Shown piece by piece: positions 1,418 to 44,970 of a stretch of DNA of 50,997 nt (position 1 is the stretch's first letter; the number at the start of each line of letters is the position of its first letter). The stretch comes from a virus (Duplodnaviria > Heunggongvirae > Uroviricota > Caudoviricetes). Both the position numbers and the translations under genes were made by a program. Below the pieces are notes generated by a model that was given only the letters and a program-made list of their open reading frames with translations, was not told the DNA's origin and searched no databases. The stretch is from the IMG/VR virus record IMGVR_UViG_648276648_000009, positions 1 through 50,997 of that record. One strand, written 5' to 3'.

Positions 1418-3678
1418 AAGAGCTGTGCTATGGATCTGTTTGCAGTGGAATTGAAGCCGCGAGTATTGCCTGGGAACCGTTGGGTATGCGTCCGGTGTGG
1501 TTTGCTGAAATCGAGTCTTTTCCATCTGCCGTTCTTGCGCACCGCTGGCCCCATGTCGCCAACCTTGGCGACATGACAAAACTTGCCAAAAAAGTCCTGG
1601 CTGGGGAAATCGAATCCCCTGATGTGCTCGTCGGGGGTACGCCTTGTCAGGCATTCAGTATCGCGGGCTTACGTGGTGGGCTTGATGATGAACGCGGCGC
1701 GCTAACTTTGAAGTATGTGGAGCTTGCAAATGCAATTGACGACAAACGGTCTGAGTCCTTCCTCAAACCGACAGTTATCGTCTGGGAAAATGTCCCAGGA
1801 GTCCTGTCATCGGCAGATAACGCCTTCGGATGTTTCCTTGCCGGATTGGCTGGAGAAGATGCGCCATTTGAACCAGGTGATCGACCTGAATCAGGAAAAA
1901 GTAACGCGTTCTGGCGGTGGGATGGCAAAACCGGTTGCCATGCTCCAAAGTGGCCGCAGTGTGGTTGTATTTATGGACCGCAGCGAAAGGTGGCCTGGAG
2001 AATCCTTGATGCCCAATACTTCGGAGTGGCACAACGACGCCGACGCGTGTTTGTTGTCGCAAGTGCTCGAACAGACCTCGATCCCGCAACGGTACTTTTT
2101 GAGTTCAAAGGCGTGCGCCGGAATATTGCGCCGAGCCGAAAAAAGAAGGAAATCGCTTCCGCCATTATTGCAAATGGCGCTGCAATCAGTGGCGAAAGCC
2201 TAAATCCATGCCTACACGCTGACATGCCACCCGGTATGAAATCGACGAAAGCCGTAAACGCTTTCAGGATGGCAGCATTTGGGGAATATATTGACGATGA
2301 AACCGCATCGACAGTAAAGGCAAGAGATTTTAAAGATGCCACTGACCTTGCCGTTTTTAGCAGCACAGGAGCAGGTTTTTGGTCAGAAGGGCATGGTACA
2401 TTGCGGGCACGTGAGCAAGAAAGCCATGAGCATCTTGTTACATTGGCTTTTCCTGAGCGTATGAGCGGTACACAACATGCTGCAACTAAGAATACTTCAC
2501 CATCTCTAATGGCTAAAAATCCAACAGCTGTTTGCTATGAAGTAAGAAACGCAGAAGTAGCTGTCCGCCGTCTTACCCCTGTCGAATGTGAAAGGCTGCA
2601 AGGTTTTCCTGATGGGCATACGTTGATCCCGACGGAAAAGCGTAAAAAAGTTAATTCAGATGAACTGGCATATCTTCGCAATCACTATCCAGATTTAAGC
2701 GAAGAAGAGGCCGCGATGCTTGCAGCTGACGGACCGCGTTACAAAGCGATCGGCAATAGTATGGCAATACCAGTAATGCGCTGGATTGGCGATCGGATTA
2801 CTAAGTCCGTATGTCGGCAGAAAGAAGGAAGTGAAACAAAAGAGCGAAAAGTTAAACCAGCGGCAGAATTCGAACGGTCCATATTCAAATGGGCTGGTGG
2901 AAAATTTGGTGTTCTGGAACAAATCTTTCGCTATTTGCCAGAAGGGAAGCGCCTGATTGAACCTTTCGTTGGTGGCGGAGCTGTCTTCATGAATGCCGGA
3001 TACCAGGAAAATCTGCTAAATGATGTGAATGCTGACCTGATTAACTTTTACAAGACTCTGCAACGCGAGGCGCATTCACTTATCACTCTGGCACATCGTT
3101 TCTTCCAGGACTACAACACACAGGAAGGATACCTGGCAGTACGGAATGCGTTTAACAAACAAGTCTATGATGATTTACATCGCGCAGCGGCGTTTTTGTT
3201 CCTGAACCGACATTGTTTTAACGGATTGACGCGTTACAACCAGGCCGGTGAGTTCAATGTCGGTTATGGGAAGTATAAAACTCCGTATTTCCCATTACAG
3301 GAGATGGAAGCCTTCCTCGGTGCGGAAGGGCGGTCTGAGTTTGTATGCGGTGATTTTGCAGCGGTGATTGAAGCTGCCGGAGAAGGAGATGTCATCTTTT
3401 GCGATCCGCCGTATGAACCGCTTCCAAATACAGAGGGATTCACGAACTATTCCGGTCATGACTTTAAGTTTGAAGAGCAAAAACGCCTGGTGTCTCTGTT
3501 GACGGATGCTCATCGTCGAGGTGCAAAGGTTCTCATTACTAACAGTGGCGCGCCAAACATCAGAGAGCTTTATCATGACAGTGGCTTCAGAGTGGAACCT
3601 CTTTTTGCCAGACGTTCTGTGTCTTGTAAGGGGGACACTCGAGGTGTAGCTCATGACGTTTTGGGTATATTGCTCTAA
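1414..3678 (+). CDS. dmt: Bifunctional DNA methyltransferase: N-terminal C5-cytosine MTase domain (PCQ and ENV motifs), C-terminal Dam-like N6-adenine MTase domain (DPPY motif)
   Basis: 754-aa ORF; [12 protein letters not shown] and VWENVPG motifs, then FCDPPYEP; GTG start overlaps hrdC stop (GTGA). Confidence 0.9.
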
Positions 3679-3698
3679 TAAATTTATTAGTGTAATAT
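3669..3698 (+). promoter_or_regulatory. C1 operator (exact ATTGCTCTAATAAATTT, 3669-3685) overlapping a sigma70-like promoter (-35 TTGCTC, 17-bp spacer, -10 TAATAT) facing the tRNA/tci/ban region
   Basis: Exact match to the 17-bp P1 C1 operator consensus; promoter hexamers read directly. Confidence 0.6.
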
Positions 3699-3859
3699 CG
3701 CCTCAATGAATCGTGATTTATAGAGCGATTTAGCTGTTAGCCGCGACAGGCGCGGCGGTAAGCATGGCTGGGCCTAGTCCTCCCAGACAAACCACCGAGT
3801 TGCCAGGTTGACCATGCGCCTAAGTGGCAACTCCGAAGTGCGTTACGAGCTTCCAGTTT

Positions 3860-3887
3860 GCCCATCTTCGGGTGGGCGTTTTTTTTC
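3860..3887 (+). terminator. Rho-independent terminator-like hairpin followed by T8
   Basis: GCCCATC-TTCG-GGTGGGC stem-loop then TTTTTTTT. Confidence 0.5.
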
Positions 3888-4067
3888 AGGGTTTTCGTCA
3901 TGGTTAGCGACTTTGCGGCGGTTTAGAAACTGACCATTAAAGTAAATGCAAACGATGATCTGATGATGGTAGCGGCCTAAGAAGCCAGATGCCACGGGGT
4001 ATGAGTCGTCCCCCGTCAAAAAATCGACCGCAGAGTGTCCCCGTCTGTGTATTAGGGAACGGGGAGG

Positions 4068-4148
4068 CACAACAGGTAAGGGCGCTGGTGTGATTAACCA
4101 GATGAACGAGAAGGGGCCATCTGTTGGTCAGCGTCCTTTCCTGTTGCG
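4068..4148 (+). repeat. Structured hairpin element R0 of the tRNA-array repeat family (5' ACAACAGGTAAGGG ... 3' CCTTTCCTGTTGCG)
   Basis: Long imperfect inverted repeat sharing the ACAGGTAAGGG arm with R1, R2 and R4. Confidence 0.5.
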
Positions 4149-4351
4149 TTTTCTTTTCAGCGTAACAGCGGTGCTTAACAGCACTTTGGGTACAGTTCCA
4201 CGAATTTACGGGTATATCCCGTCATGCTGAAAGCGCTAATCACGCTGGAAGCCAGGGTTGTGCATCCCCTGTTACCGAATTGCAGCCAGGGCGCGGTGCG
4301 CCGAAAAGCATACGGAGGTGGAAGCCCTCGCCGGAGACGTACCCGGCAAGT

Positions 4352-4427
4352 GATGGTGTAGCTCAGCGGTTAGAGCGGTTGACTGTTAATCAACGGGTCG
4401 ATGGTTCAAATCCATCCACCATCGCCA
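4352..4427 (+). tRNA. tRNA-Asn (anticodon GUU)
   Basis: 76-nt cloverleaf: acceptor GATGGTG/CACCATC, anticodon loop CTGTTAA, T-loop GGTTCAAATCC, 3' CCA encoded. Confidence 0.9.
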
Positions 4428-4429
4428 AT

Positions 4430-4505
4430 GCCGGTTTAGCTCAGTTGGTAGAGCGCCTGCCTTGTAAGCAGGATGTCAGCGGTTCGAGTCCGTTAATCGG
4501 CACCA
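4430..4505 (+). tRNA. tRNA-Thr (anticodon UGU)
   Basis: 76 nt; close to E. coli tRNA-Thr as recalled; anticodon loop CTTGTAA; T-loop GGTTCGAGTCC; CCA encoded. Confidence 0.9.
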
Positions 4506-4506
4506 G

Positions 4507-4616
4507 CACAACAGGTAAGGGTATTTTGCGACGTCGGAGATCGCCGAGCTTGGCAGAGGGTTCGAATCCCTACGAAGTACCCTTACCGTTGTGATGAATG
4601 CGCAGGCTGATGCGCG
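4507..4616 (+). repeat. Structured element R1: long stem ACAACAGGTAAGGGTA/TACCCTTACCGTTGTG enclosing a canonical T-arm-like hairpin (GAGGGTTCGAATCCCTAC), followed by a GCGCAGGCTGATGCGCG hairpin
   Basis: Inverted repeats and T-loop motif read directly; no anticodon arm, so not called a tRNA. Confidence 0.5.
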
Positions 4617-4716
4617 AAAGACATTGCAGCTATTGCGGAAAAGAGCTGTTCGGCGGGGCAATTAAACGCCCGTGAGAGTCTGAAATAACCGCAAGCCGGA
4701 GATCAGCACCGGTCAT

Positions 4717-4810
4717 CACAACACAACAGGTAAGGGCATTCTCCCTTATGGGGCTTGGCTTAAATGCATCGAGTGCTCTTACCGTTGTGATGAAGTGCAG
4801 CTCTTTGAAG
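4717..4810 (+). repeat. Structured element R2 of the same family (ACAACAGGTAAGGGCA ... TGCTCTTACCGTTGTGATGAAG)
   Basis: Shares both stem arms and the GTGATGAA tail with R1. Confidence 0.5.
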
Positions 4811-4928
4811 CAACCAGAAGATAAGCATCTGGCTTCACAACATAAACCGCAGGAACGACCAATAAACGGTAGTCCGTATGGAGAACACCCCGTTGAGGAA
4901 GAGGCCTGGCCGGAACCGTAACCGGCAC

Positions 4929-5047
4929 TACAACGTTGAGAACACTGGCGTAACGGGGTCATATCCCAATCTACGAATAAATGTTGCGTTGCAGCGTGAC
5001 AACCAGTGTTCTCAACATTGTGGTGAATGCACAGGCTGATGTGCCGC
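4929..5047 (+). repeat. Structured element R3 (CAACGTTGAGAACACTG ... CAGTGTTCTCAACATTG stem, internal GGGGTCATATCCCAATCTAC, GTGGTGAATGCACAGGCTGATGTGCC tail)
   Basis: 17-bp perfect inverted repeat with T-arm-like internal hairpin; tail matches R1. Confidence 0.5.
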
Positions 5048-5203
5048 AACTACAGTAGTGCGCGCTTTGCGGGGCTTGCTACAACCCTGTGTCGGAGTTC
5101 AGCACCGACCATCACAGTTTGATTCTCTGGCATGAGCATAACGCTGAAATAAGTCCAGTCTGGTGCGGCCCGATCACCCGCCGTTAGCTCCACGAAACGG
5201 AGC

Positions 5204-5306
5204 ACGTAACAGGTAAGAGCATTCTCCTGTAACGGGTTCATATCCCAATCTACAGGTCCACCAGGAATGCTCTTTCCGTTGCGGTGAATGCGGCTAAGCG
5301 CACGCG
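5204..5306 (+). repeat. Structured element R4 (ACGTAACAGGTAAGAGCA ... TGCTCTTTCCGTTGCGGTGAATGCGG, internal GGGTTCATATCCCAATCTAC)
   Basis: Same arm and tail motifs as R1-R3. Confidence 0.5.
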
Positions 5307-5432
5307 GGGAAATGGTTATATCTGTCCATTATTTCTCCTTATTTCCCCGTCCATGGTGGATAACCAGCCAAAGGACACCGGGAAGCACCCGGCACCGCAA
5401 CCTTATTTCCCAACCAGTAATGAGGTTAATAA

Positions 5433-5858
5433 ATGCTCGGCATTCTCAAAAAGAAATTCCGCAAAGCGGCTGGCGGAGTCAAGAAGATGGAAAACCGTGA
5501 TGCGGTGGAAGCGACTGTCTGGGGCGCATATTCCATTGCATACTCTGACGGCACCTGCGATGCGAAAGAAATTGCAGTGTTGGAAAAAACCATTGCAGCA
5601 CTTCCTGCCTTTGCGCCGTTCTCCGGTGAAATTGCCCAGATGAGCGCCAATATTCGCGCTCAATATGAAGCCTCGCCGCGCCGAGCGAATGCCCAGGCTT
5701 TACGTGAACTGGCTGACGTGTCTGGAACTAATGATGCGGTAGATGTTCTGTGCCTATGCATTGATATTGCTGACCAGGATGGCATTGGGGCAGAAGAGCA
5801 GGAGCAATTGAAGAAAATTGCCCAGGCTCTTCAATTGCCACTGGAACAGTATATCTGA
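5433..5858 (+). CDS. tciA: TerB-like tellurite-resistance family protein (P1 TciA-like)
   Basis: 141-aa ORF with SD; acidic TerB-like composition; sits upstream of two small membrane ORFs and tRNA-CAU as in the P1 tci cluster. Confidence 0.7.
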   Translation: MLGILKKKFRKAAGGVKKMENRDAVEATVWGAYSIAYSDGTCDAKEIAVLEKTIAALPAFAPFSGEIAQMSANIRAQYEASPRRANAQALRELADVSGTNDAVDVLCLCIDIADQDGIGAEEQEQLKKIAQALQLPLEQYI

Positions 5859-6132: not shown

Positions 6133-6208
6133 GGCCCTTTAGCTCAGTGGTTAGAGCTGGCGACTCATAATCGCACGGTCACCGGTTCAAGTCCGGTAGG
6201 GGCCACCA
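6133..6208 (+). tRNA. tRNA with CAU anticodon, most likely tRNA-Ile2 (lysidine-type) rather than Met
   Basis: 76 nt; near-identical to E. coli ileX-type tRNA as recalled; anticodon loop CTCATAA; CCA encoded. Confidence 0.85.
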
Positions 6209-38766: not shown

Positions 38767-39078
38767 ATGCGGAAGGATTTCAAAATAGACGGAAAATATG
38801 TGGTGCTGTCTGTAAGCTCTCAAATTCAGTCACCATCTGTCATTGTCACCGTAAAGTTGAGCGATAGGATGCCTGATATCGACTCGATATCTGTTGCGTT
38901 CCCCGTTAAAAGCATGCGGAGTGCTGAACATTTTGTGATGAATGCAACGGAGGAGGAAGCGCGGCGCGGGCTTACTAGAGTGATGGGGGAATTTGGCGAA
39001 CTCCTGGGTAAGGTAAACAATGCTCTTTCAATCAGTTCAGCAAGGTCCAAAGCGTTAACAGCTTCCATGATGAAATAA
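38767..39078 (+). CDS. cra: Cre-associated small protein (P1 Cra-like)
   Basis: 103-aa ORF immediately downstream of cre. Confidence 0.6.
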   Translation: MRKDFKIDGKYVVLSVSSQIQSPSVIVTVKLSDRMPDIDSISVAFPVKSMRSAEHFVMNATEEEARRGLTRVMGEFGELLGKVNNALSISSARSKALTASMMK

Positions 39079-44533: not shown

Positions 44534-44970
44534 GTTTTCTCTCCAGCCTGTGCCAAGGCTTCAACTTCCAAATCGTAAGACTCAAACTCATAGTCCTGGT
44601 CGTCAACTTCTTCAGGCACTGGCAGTAAATGCCAGGCTGAGTATATCTGACCATTATCAAAACGCTCCTGGCTGTAGAGCGTCGCGGCTATGAGTGTTAG
44701 CGCCGGGCGGTCATAACGGTAAATTTTGCGAACGTCACGGTCAACGAGACGACCGAAATTACCATAACCGCGCTCCAGTAATAATTTTTTAATTTCCGGC
44801 CAGTATGGACCATAGCTGCGGTACAGGCGGGGATTTTTCAGTAATCGCCCGCGTAGCCCTGACAGGAAGAAATCAACGTATTCGTCTTCTGTCTTTCCTA
44901 ACAACGCTGTACGGAGTACCGCCTCAAGATATGTTTTATTCGGTTTTATTGTATCAGATAGTGTGGCCAT
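44530..44970 (-). CDS. Hypothetical protein, 146 aa (Ulx-like by position)
   Basis: ORF between the DarB-like and Lxc-like genes; 4-nt overlap with the downstream gene. Confidence 0.5.
   Translation of the reverse strand: MATLSDTIKPNKTYLEAVLRTALLGKTEDEYVDFFLSGLRGRLLKNPRLYRSYGPYWPEIKKLLLERGYGNFGRLVDRDVRKIYRYDRPALTLIAATLYSQERFDNGQIYSAWHLLPVPEEVDDQDYEFESYDLEVEALAQAGEKT

Follow-up and report, generated by a model that had tools for sequence, protein, structure and literature searches.

Why should a phage maintain a long run of hairpins beside two tRNA genes, in a tract with no convincing open reading frame (ORF)? The question is raised by positions 4069-5291 of a window of 50,997 nucleotides, positions 1 to 50,997 of IMG/VR virus record IMGVR_UViG_648276648_000009, which in this region is 99.6% identical to the Punavirus (P1-type) phage JL22 and has the locus order dmt, array, tciA-tciB-tciC-tRNA(CAT)-ban. 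An initial annotation had read the array as imperfect copies of a single structured unit of ~100 nt. We found that the array is real and that it contains five long-stem elements, E1 to E5, all on the + strand, with fold z-scores (measured against dinucleotide shuffles) of -5.5 to -7.3. However, the five do not repeat a single element: the outer stem alone is common to them and their inserts are unrelated, save for a 25-nt block (repeat family D5) that is 96% identical in E4 and E5. We propose that the tract forms a polycistronic leader in which small-RNA cassettes, each on a scaffold, are processed together with the tRNAs, a reading to which we assign a probability of roughly 55%.

A hairpin scaffold with an exchangeable insert

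The five hairpins represent a module, here called A, that consists of an irregular stem of 19-24 bp with a conserved sequence frame and an exchangeable insert of 30-80 nt at its tip. The constant part of the frame reads ACAAC-A-GGUAAGrGCAUU…AGUGCUCUUaCC-GUUGU and encloses an inner ~45 nt of many unrelated types; a bulge or 1x1 loop ~6 bp above the base is conserved, as is a U·G pair. Each of the five is 7-10 kcal/mol more stable as the + strand than as the - strand. The whole stretch 4506-5432 has a fold z of -8.0, and the spacers at 4283-4351, 4841-4925 and 5118-5203 were unstructured in the fold test. Chance would place the 5' stem motif of module A 0.75 times and the 3' junction motif 0.52 times in the 51-kb window; the counts observed are four and five. 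From the strong folds and the motif enrichment we regard the array as real and not a product of chance.

A single stray match to the stem and junction motifs falls outside the array, at 38932-38945 (TTTGTGATGAATGC, one mismatch to the A/B junction motif), and is probably due to chance. A candidate sixth element at 4158-4282 (GTAACAGCGG…CCCCTGTTAC) was rejected: its + strand z is -1.4, its - strand folds better and it occurs in P1-type genomes only.

Module A is a separate module that is neither named nor described in Rfam 15 or in the literature searched. No Rfam family matched any A element, and matches to microRNA-precursor families were set aside as spurious hits to generic long hairpins. 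What differs from one A element to the next is the insert. E1, of which 59 near-identical copies exist among P1-type loci, shares its insert with the Ackermannviridae phage 3M (GGGCGCTGG..TTAATCAGG in common). The insert of E2 combines a 4-bp capped hairpin with a canonical T-arm (AGGG-UUCGAAU-CCCU) stacked on the stem, in the manner of a minihelix from a tRNA or a tRNA-like domain (TLD), and Enterobacter phage BUCT554 keeps this insert on a stem that is compensated. Its 7-bp helix runs on into the scaffold stem and the next letters are (A)CCC, not CCA. The T-arm-like internal hairpin of the initial annotation is canonical in this element alone; in E4 and E5 its place is taken by a 3-bp hairpin (GGG-UUCAUAU-CCC), and E1 and E3 have no T-arm-like motif.

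A second module related to STnc100

The initial annotation had also described a 3' hairpin and a recurrent CCGGAGA…CACCGG motif. Both are present, but they mark either end of a distinct module, B, which does not follow E1: GTGATGAATGC and its hairpin form the 5' end and CCGGAGAnnnnCACCGG the 3' end. Module B has the form of a cloverleaf, with a closing helix of 9 bp (GUUGUGrUG/CAyCACAAC), conserved first and last hairpins and an exchangeable middle, of which at least 10 unrelated kinds occur within the same frame. The order after the tRNAs is A2-B2-A3-B3-spacer-A4-B4-spacer-A5-B5-tciA. B2, with first hairpin GCGCA-GGCUGA-UGCGC and last hairpin GCCGGAGAUCAGCACCGG, has copies 96-98% identical just 3' of cI in mEp460 and in Stx2 phages, and B3 has counterparts of 83-86% identity in Sashavirus and Bas82 phages. 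In the lambdoid phages with a B2 copy, matches to isrK and C4 antisense RNA that exceed the Rfam gathering thresholds lie at a distance of a few kb, close to the antirepressor gene (L002 1-170, L003 27-103).

To judge from sequence and fold, module B and the prophage Hfq small RNAs (sRNAs) STnc100 and PasD form one structural family. B5 aligns to the Rfam STnc100 model (RF02076) over model positions 31-147 with 39.2 bits (E = 2e-6), below the gathering threshold of 47, and the folds of B2, B4 and B5 each have the closing helix, the first hairpin and the last hairpin abutting the 3' strand that make up the STnc100 core. A full-length, sub-threshold STnc100 alignment in Salmonella phage 118970_sal3 overlaps an A element, and was the source of the idea that one A+B unit corresponds to one STnc100 gene. 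That idea was rejected: 120 canonical STnc100 loci have a promoter upstream, not a scaffold hairpin, so module A is separate and module B alone is STnc100-like.

Frames covary while inserts move

Covariation across related genomes was among the checks that the initial annotation had proposed, and compensatory changes were found in the frames of both modules. The calculation was made with inserts removed, on elements chosen for foldability. In the bulged A scaffold (36 sequences) 95.2% of cells are paired and 10 of the 19 pairs are compensated; in the unbulged form, which includes E4 (14 sequences), the values are 97% and 14 of 19; in the B frame (19 sequences) they are 95.5% and 7 of 20, with compensation in all three helices. 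None of 500 shuffles reached the score of any of the three, and slid alignments were 35-65%, 33-58% and 26-57% paired, respectively. The irregularities of the bulged scaffold are themselves conserved, with U·G at pair 17-28 in 26 of the 36 sequences and U×U at pair 9-36 in 15. In the stems, read on the tRNA strand, G·U pairs number 59 and A×C cells 4.

A pattern requiring both halves of the A stem matched at least 119 viral contigs, and a scan of the fetched loci that is independent of stem sequence yielded 102 unique elements; among inserts of the bulged form there are at least 45 types. Conservation of the inserts is independent of the stems: E2 and its BUCT554 counterpart have identical insert blocks on differently compensated stems, and loci L017 and L035 carry one insert on different stems. 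Among P1-type genomes the slot after tRNA-Thr holds different inserts, and the Thr-tciA spacer measures 452, 731, 771, 824/825 or 927 nt, differences of whole modules. This frame-plus-insert grammar, which was not part of the initial annotation, explains the block-wise variation of this part of P1-type genomes and offers a handle for finding many further phage small RNAs, besides correcting gene annotation. A same-strand tRNA lies within 1.5 kb of 35 of the 45 insert types, the one opposite case being a symmetric hairpin, and of the 36 insert types that are informative, 35 point in the same direction as the tRNAs. The suggestion that the elements are small RNAs or processing signals is favoured, as a direction, by the covariation, by selection on the tRNA strand, by the co-orientation with tRNAs and by the relation of module B to STnc100.

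A proposed leader of processed cassettes

On the reading that we prefer, the + strand of the tract would be a noncoding leader made of two kinds of self-folding module and transcribed along with tRNA-Asn and tRNA-Thr. Each module would join its own 5' and 3' ends, so that modules would fold independently and could be added, lost or swapped by recombination within their conserved frames. Host RNases would then free tRNAs and modules as stable small RNAs. RNase III is a candidate in the long stems; the outer stems of module A measure 15-26 bp, in line with the mostly Watson-Crick helix of ~20 bp or more that it needs. RNase P may act at the stem-stacked T-arm of E2, and the joints, being single-stranded, may be cut by RNase E. 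The frames may supply folding insulation, nuclease resistance and processing signals, and the inserts may be the working part, as base-pairing seeds or as mimics that bind proteins, T-arm minihelices being an example.

The initial annotation had considered the array to be probably co-transcribed from the operator-promoter upstream. This is plausible, but a strong intrinsic terminator at 3856-3887 (stem 3856-3878 plus U8) had been overlooked. It is the sole + strand intrinsic terminator between the promoter and tciA, and with it in place the promoter would first make a terminated RNA of ~180 nt, the array requiring read-through or antitermination. The operator contains ATTGCTCTAATAAATTT, which we take to be the P1 C1-operator consensus; a strict sigma-70 scan called no promoter at 3667-3698. 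The first ~40 nt of the leader (ATAGAGCG..AGCTGTT) are common to phages 3M and K751, where the rest is replaced by a long hairpin, and an Rfam search with the leader returned no family. Transcript levels of tciA, trnA and ban of P1vir are altered in a Δhfq host, a result that is compatible with the cassette model though not specific to it, and that bears on Hfq association indirectly.

Several points weigh against this proposal. RNA species, processing sites and Hfq binding at the array are all inferred, and a strong terminator stands between the operator-promoter and the array. The STnc100 model detects B5 alone, and that below threshold; B2, B3 and B4 went undetected by it, B2 and B4 being tied to the family only by the common frame, and B3 and B4 individually fold no better than shuffles. 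The P1 units have no promoter, single-stranded tail or terminator of their own, and so may not be trans-acting sRNAs. Finally, the choice of elements for foldability biases the percentages of pairing upward, and it is for this reason that the strand asymmetry in G·U pairs serves as independent evidence. The array is best filed as a variant of known prophage sRNA-type modules, with a function that is conjectural.

The coordinates of the features are collected in Table 1. Both tRNA genes named by the initial annotation were confirmed, and a third appears at 6133-6208 in the ARAGORN and Rfam results. The hairpin preceding tRNA-Asn is of the type of the last hairpin of module B, and in K751 and L017, too, such a hairpin stands 5' of tRNA-like or scaffold elements. 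The spacer around the hairpin preceding E4 is otherwise unstructured. The name tciA is taken from the annotation of phage JL22.

Table 1. Features of the locus, with window coordinates and the basis of each assignment
Feature	Position	Strand	Basis and remarks
Palindromic double operator over the operon promoter (ATATTGCTCTAATAAA/TTTATTAGTGTAATAT)	3667-3698	.	inverted repeat I2, 16-nt arms, 0 spacing
Short leader RNA with intrinsic terminator	3704-3887	+	fold z = -2.2
Tag module: GGUUUUCGU, small hairpin, resume codon, tag ORF 3948-3980, pseudoknot(s)	3889-4066	+	Rfam and alignment
E1, scaffold hairpin with bulge at position 9, directly 3' of tag module	4069-4147	+	fold z = -5.5
GCCGGAGACGUACCCGGC hairpin, 4 nt 5' of tRNA-Asn	4330-4347	+	read from sequence
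tRNA-Asn (GUU)	4352-4427	+	ARAGORN; Rfam tRNA 74.5 bits
tRNA-Thr (UGU)	4430-4505	+	ARAGORN; Rfam tRNA 72.9 bits
E2, scaffold hairpin starting 2 nt past tRNA-Thr	4508-4592	+	fold z = -5.8
B2, cloverleaf type, closed by GUUGUGAUGA/UCAUCACAAC	4588-4722	+	fold; frame covariation
E3, scaffold hairpin with short insert	4723-4788	+	fold z = -6.1; 49 copies in P1-type loci
B3, short module B, closing helix GUUGUGA/UCACAAC, hairpin CCAGAAGAUAAGCAUCUGG	4784-4841	+	repeat families D1, D2; fold weak, z = -1.5
CCGGAACCGUAACCGG hairpin, 4 nt 5' of E4	4910-4925	+	read from sequence
E4, unbulged scaffold variant (ACAACGUUGAGAACACUGG/CCAGUGUUCUCAACAUUGU) with two-hairpin insert	4930-5021	+	inverted repeat I1; fold z = -7.3
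B4, module B with compensated hairpins GCACA/UGUGC and GUCGG/CCGAC	5017-5117	+	fold and frame alignment; minimum free energy z = -0.3, not significant
E5, scaffold hairpin (GUAAC-A-GGUAAGAGCAUUC…GAAUGCUCUUUCC-GUUGC)	5206-5282	+	fold z = -5.9; repeat family D5, inverted repeat I9
B5, STnc100-like cloverleaf, 5' untranslated region of tciA	5278-5401	+	fold z = -4.0
tciA, first protein-coding gene downstream (TerB family)	5433-5858	+	Pfam TerB 28.4 bits, cut-off 24.4

The modules in other phages, lambda included

The initial annotation did not extend beyond P1-type phages, but the modules do: single modules are 83-98% identical in unrelated temperate phages, and examples are known from lambdoid, P22-like, N4-like and Ackermannviridae phages. 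E2 is present in a P22-like phage, and further modules occur in phages of Klebsiella, Salmonella and Cronobacter. In Klebsiella prophages a dedicated operon of variable content runs from a promoter through an optional tag module, A, B and a tRNA to a terminator. In the lytic Ackermannviridae phages 3M and K751 and in one N4-like phage the modules lie within long noncoding tRNA clusters. The order of parts that is seen in P1 recurs in the unrelated K751 and 3M, in the Klebsiella prophages, in lambdoid phages and in lambda after tR'.

In phage lambda (J02459) an A element occupies 44,790-44,866, beginning 7 nt past the U-tract of tR' and upstream of S. It is followed by a miniature B-type domain, the whole unit extending to ~44,910 (L280 989-1110) and overlapping the 3' end of the dubious orf-64. 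The unit has no Rfam match. Although unannotated, the lambda-type unit is present in 412 of 5,426 complete E. coli genomes. P1 and lambda are among the most studied of all phages, yet the conserved, covarying frame is unannotated in them or lies under the doubtful genes plp, upl and orf-64. The literature searched contained nothing relevant on the leader of the P1 ban operon or on the lambda late leader past tR'.

A scan of species-representative genomes (L245-L279) gave 35 matches. Since ~20 of them resemble lambda contamination of the assemblies, these carry no information on host range. The suspects are low-coverage contigs, several of them ~48.4-48.5 kb long, with the lambda version of the element, in assemblies of unrelated taxa, for example Pseudomonas, Shewanella, Oceanobacillus, Bradyrhizobium, Kitasatospora and Enterococcus. 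The one suspect contig that was compared (L264) is 100% identical to lambda, so that a spike-in or contamination in the laboratory is indicated for the lambda-bearing assemblies.

Some further observations were made at these loci. The tRNA cluster of the N4-like Klebsiella phage K60PH164C1 (L125) includes tRNA-like pieces at 1340-1415 and 1908-1973 that ARAGORN did not call: one is a 75-nt cloverleaf-like piece with an odd anticodon loop that ends in GCCA, and the other is Cys(GCA)-like, lacks a D-arm, is ~65 nt long and ends in ACCA. The record annotates the noncoding tract of this phage as a RIIA pseudogene. A viral contig unrelated to P1 (L022) has, at 2236-2365 on the - strand and directly upstream of a scaffold element, a 130-nt tRNA-Thr-like gene (Rfam tRNA, 44 bits) with an apparent insertion of ~55 nt in the anticodon region. 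A third module, CCAGACGATATCTGAGTGrCTwTAAAAACAGATGG…GGTGGAAwCCC, adjoins scaffolds in L035, L107 and L125 (for example at L125 1842-1900); among these are a prophage of Klebsiella, a further viral contig and the N4-like phage.

A tag module derived from tmRNA

The region directly 5' of E1, which had escaped the initial annotation, resembles the coding piece of transfer-messenger RNA (tmRNA). The reading UAAAU-GCA AAC GAU GAU CUG AUG AUG GUA GCG GCC UAA encodes ANDDLMMVAA*, so that the module at 3889-4066 has a GCA resume start, an Ala-Ala-stop end and conservation at the level of the peptide. The tag reads ANDDVVLMAA*, ANDNAFLMAA*, ANDNTFLAVA* or much the same in homologues from Klebsiella prophages, the N4-like phage and Ackermannviridae; their Ala codons differ synonymously across lineages, and the K751 tag is an exception in ending with AVA*. 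The stop codon sits in a helix, and the pseudoknot covaries (stem 114-118/129-133 compensated; loop pairs GUCG:CGAC, CCGA:UCGG and CCAG:CUGG). The Rfam tmRNA_permuted model gave 26.1 bits over 3874-3980 against a gathering threshold of 47, the beta_tmRNA model aligned below threshold to the tag and pseudoknot of the 3M homologue, and ARAGORN found no tmRNA.

In the P1-type module GGUUUUCGU is the sole remnant of the 5' tRNA-like half: there is no acceptor strand 5' of it and no tRNA-like domain. A tRNA-like partner was sought around 29 distinct modules and discarded as a candidate, there being no free T-arm with acceptor and NCCA within 2 kb that is complementary to the 5' flank. In the Klebsiella prophages a promoter -10 element precedes GUUUUCG by ~12 nt. 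P1, K751 and the Klebsiella prophages have tag module, A and B in this order, and in 3M the tag module is followed by A; bona fide standard and permuted phage tmRNAs with a near-identical tag occur in viral tRNA clusters. The pipelines of tmRNA databases demand a tRNA-like domain, and a phage form consisting of the TLD only is known and inhibits tmRNA; the literature searched describes no tag-only form. The module raises the question of whether the coding part of tmRNA can work, or can disturb ribosome rescue, without a tRNA-like domain.

Alternative explanations

The main rival to a leader of functional cassettes holds that the hairpins are purely punctuation for processing or stability, such as RNase III sites or structures protecting 5' or 3' ends, which would set apart and stabilise the tRNAs and the tciA-ban mRNA; the inserts would do nothing by themselves, and no separate small RNA would be of consequence. 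We consider it unlikely, yet several observations favour it: the conserved part is the long irregular stem, E2 begins 2 nt past tRNA-Thr just as an element in L107 and L123 ends 2 nt 5' of tRNA-Arg, and the modules of both lambda and P1 lie in long untranslated leaders just past a terminator, B5 being the 5' untranslated region of tciA. However, inserts are kept across phages while the stems around them change, which would not be expected were the stem alone important, and four or five marks in succession with no gene between them would be redundant.

A bolder possibility, which we regard as a long shot, is that enterobacterial phages, P1 and lambda as well as N4-like and Ackermannviridae phages, share an unrecognised RNA cassette system in which frames A and B show hypervariable payloads, some of them T-arm or acceptor mimics, and travel with the TLD-less tag module. 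It would amount to a toolkit directed against the host's translation, tRNA and ribosome-rescue machinery or against defences that target tRNA. Its means would be decoys, with SmpB, RNase P, tRNA-modifying enzymes or anticodon nucleases as their targets, or else a tmRNA put together in trans from several pieces.

The remaining explanations are less likely than punctuation. It is improbable that the tag module, the E2-type minihelices and their neighbours form a dispersed trans-translation device, whether as a trans-assembled tmRNA or as decoys for SmpB and tmRNA. The conservation of the tag through synonymous change, the covarying pseudoknot, the recurrent tag-A-B order and the precedent of a TLD-only phage RNA that inhibits tmRNA are what such a device would have in its favour. 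The missing acceptor strand and the missing T-arm, acceptor and NCCA partner speak against it, as does E2, which lacks both G3·U70 and CCA, is not matched by tmRNA models and represents one of many insert types.

Decay of tRNA genes from a larger ancestral cluster, an origin close to the degenerate tRNAs of the initial annotation, is largely refuted and very unlikely to account for the elements. They do reside in tRNA clusters, E2 has its canonical T-arm on a 7-bp helix, and T-arms recur on the 3' side of the insert in L004, L127, L143 and L244. But ARAGORN and the Rfam tRNA model give nothing for E1-E5 even at E<=10, and none of the five combines a T-arm whose loop is UUCRANY, a 7-bp acceptor helix beneath it and an NCCA end. 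The conserved part is a stem that is not that of a tRNA, and most of the inserts that the frame carries elsewhere have no tRNA feature. The compensatory evolution of the stem indicates purifying selection and not decay.

An action at the level of DNA, with the elements as miniature mobile elements or attC-like sites of single-strand recombination that move as cassettes, seems slightly less probable still. Its appeal lies in the attC-like architecture, in the variation of module content among close relatives and in the presence of identical modules in unrelated phages. The excess of G·U pairs over A×C cells and the fixed orientation to tRNAs and transcription argue instead for action as RNA. 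In addition, the ends (C)ACAAC and GTTGTG(A/G) miss the attC core RYYYAAC/GTTRRRY (GTTGTGA fails RRR), the flanks showed no target-site duplications of the kind left by transposons and miniature inverted-repeat elements, and no recombinase was seen beside the copies in the annotated loci inspected, a systematic recombinase search not being part of the analysis.

That the tract encodes - strand proteins, its RNA structure being incidental, is scarcely credible: public records do annotate the lipoprotein gene plp at 4630-4962 and upl, or a hypothetical gene, at 5050-5241 on that strand, the upl-like ORF itself being given as 5050-5193, but plp, upl, gp73 and gp74 have no Pfam family match, the Cys/Ser-rich Plp translation has neither signal peptide nor lipobox, the length of the plp ORF tracks module content (110, 87, 63 or 52 aa), pieces of plp occur apart in unrelated phages and the structure is selected on the + strand. 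The plp- and upl-type ORFs were accordingly rejected as true genes and are probably incidental or spurious, in keeping with the initial annotation, which had seen no convincing ORF here.

Comparison with known systems

The cassettes can be set beside several known arrangements. The tRNA cluster of phage T4 includes species 1 and 2, structured stable RNAs that are not tRNAs and are co-transcribed and co-processed with them; by description, which is the extent of this comparison, they are two single genes with no frame-plus-insert arrangement. RNase III hairpins such as the T7 R sites, the lambda N-leader and sib likewise lie between functional units of polycistronic phage RNA, as irregular stems that reach 20 bp or more and are interrupted by a bulge or internal loop; such sites are not known to carry diverse, independently conserved inserts. 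A match to YrlA/Y RNA (RF02553) was dismissed as spurious: it is a single hit of 25.6 bits (gathering threshold 69) that covers the two real tRNAs.

Integron attC sites resemble the A elements in being imperfect palindromes with AAC/GTT-type ends, an extrahelical base, a variable tip and cassette-like variation. The A elements differ from them in departing from the core consensus, in having no associated integrase and in strand and orientation data that indicate RNA. The tag module shares with the coding piece of two-piece and permuted tmRNA (RF01850, RF04321) the resume context, a 10-codon AND…AA* tag, a stop codon in a helix and a covarying pseudoknot, features known from tmRNAs of phages and beta-proteobacteria; unlike tmRNA it is without acceptor stem, T-arm and CCA, and all the tmRNA models (RF00023, RF01850, RF04321) remain below threshold. 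The E2 insert resembles a capped tRNA-like domain, comparable with the TLD-only RNA of mycobacteriophage DS6A. The likeness to tmRNA is otherwise a property of the neighbour of E1 and not of the five hairpins as a class.

The layout of the locus has its closest counterpart in lambda, where pR'-6S-tR' is followed by an A element just as promoter, leader and terminator are followed by the array in P1; the operator-controlled, terminated leader of ~180 nt is analogous to lambda 6S and to StxS. PasA and the lambda-type scaffold element both lie next to a holin gene, a comparison made by position alone.

It is with STnc100 and PasD that the likeness extends to structure. Both are Hfq-associated prophage sRNAs validated by northern blotting and by RIL-seq, and they are often found near Q, tRNAs and TerB genes. 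Canonical STnc100 copies have TTGACT upstream and GGCCCCUCUCCGGAGGGGCUUU downstream (promoter, tail and terminator) and no scaffold hairpin upstream, whereas the B copies of P1, which stand in series within the leader of an operon, lack individual promoters, seed tails and terminators. The core is nevertheless alike: in STnc100 it is a closing helix of 7-9 bp that starts with GGUGAAU, with the first hairpin 3-4 nt further on, and in B5 an STnc100-like last hairpin, CACCGGGArGCACCCGGCACC, abuts the 3' strand of the closing helix. STnc100, PasD and module B also share their surroundings in temperate enterobacterial phages, often near tRNAs, Q or late leaders and TerB-family genes. These poorly understood sRNAs are thereby tied to a wider family of modules that resides beside the tRNA genes of phages.

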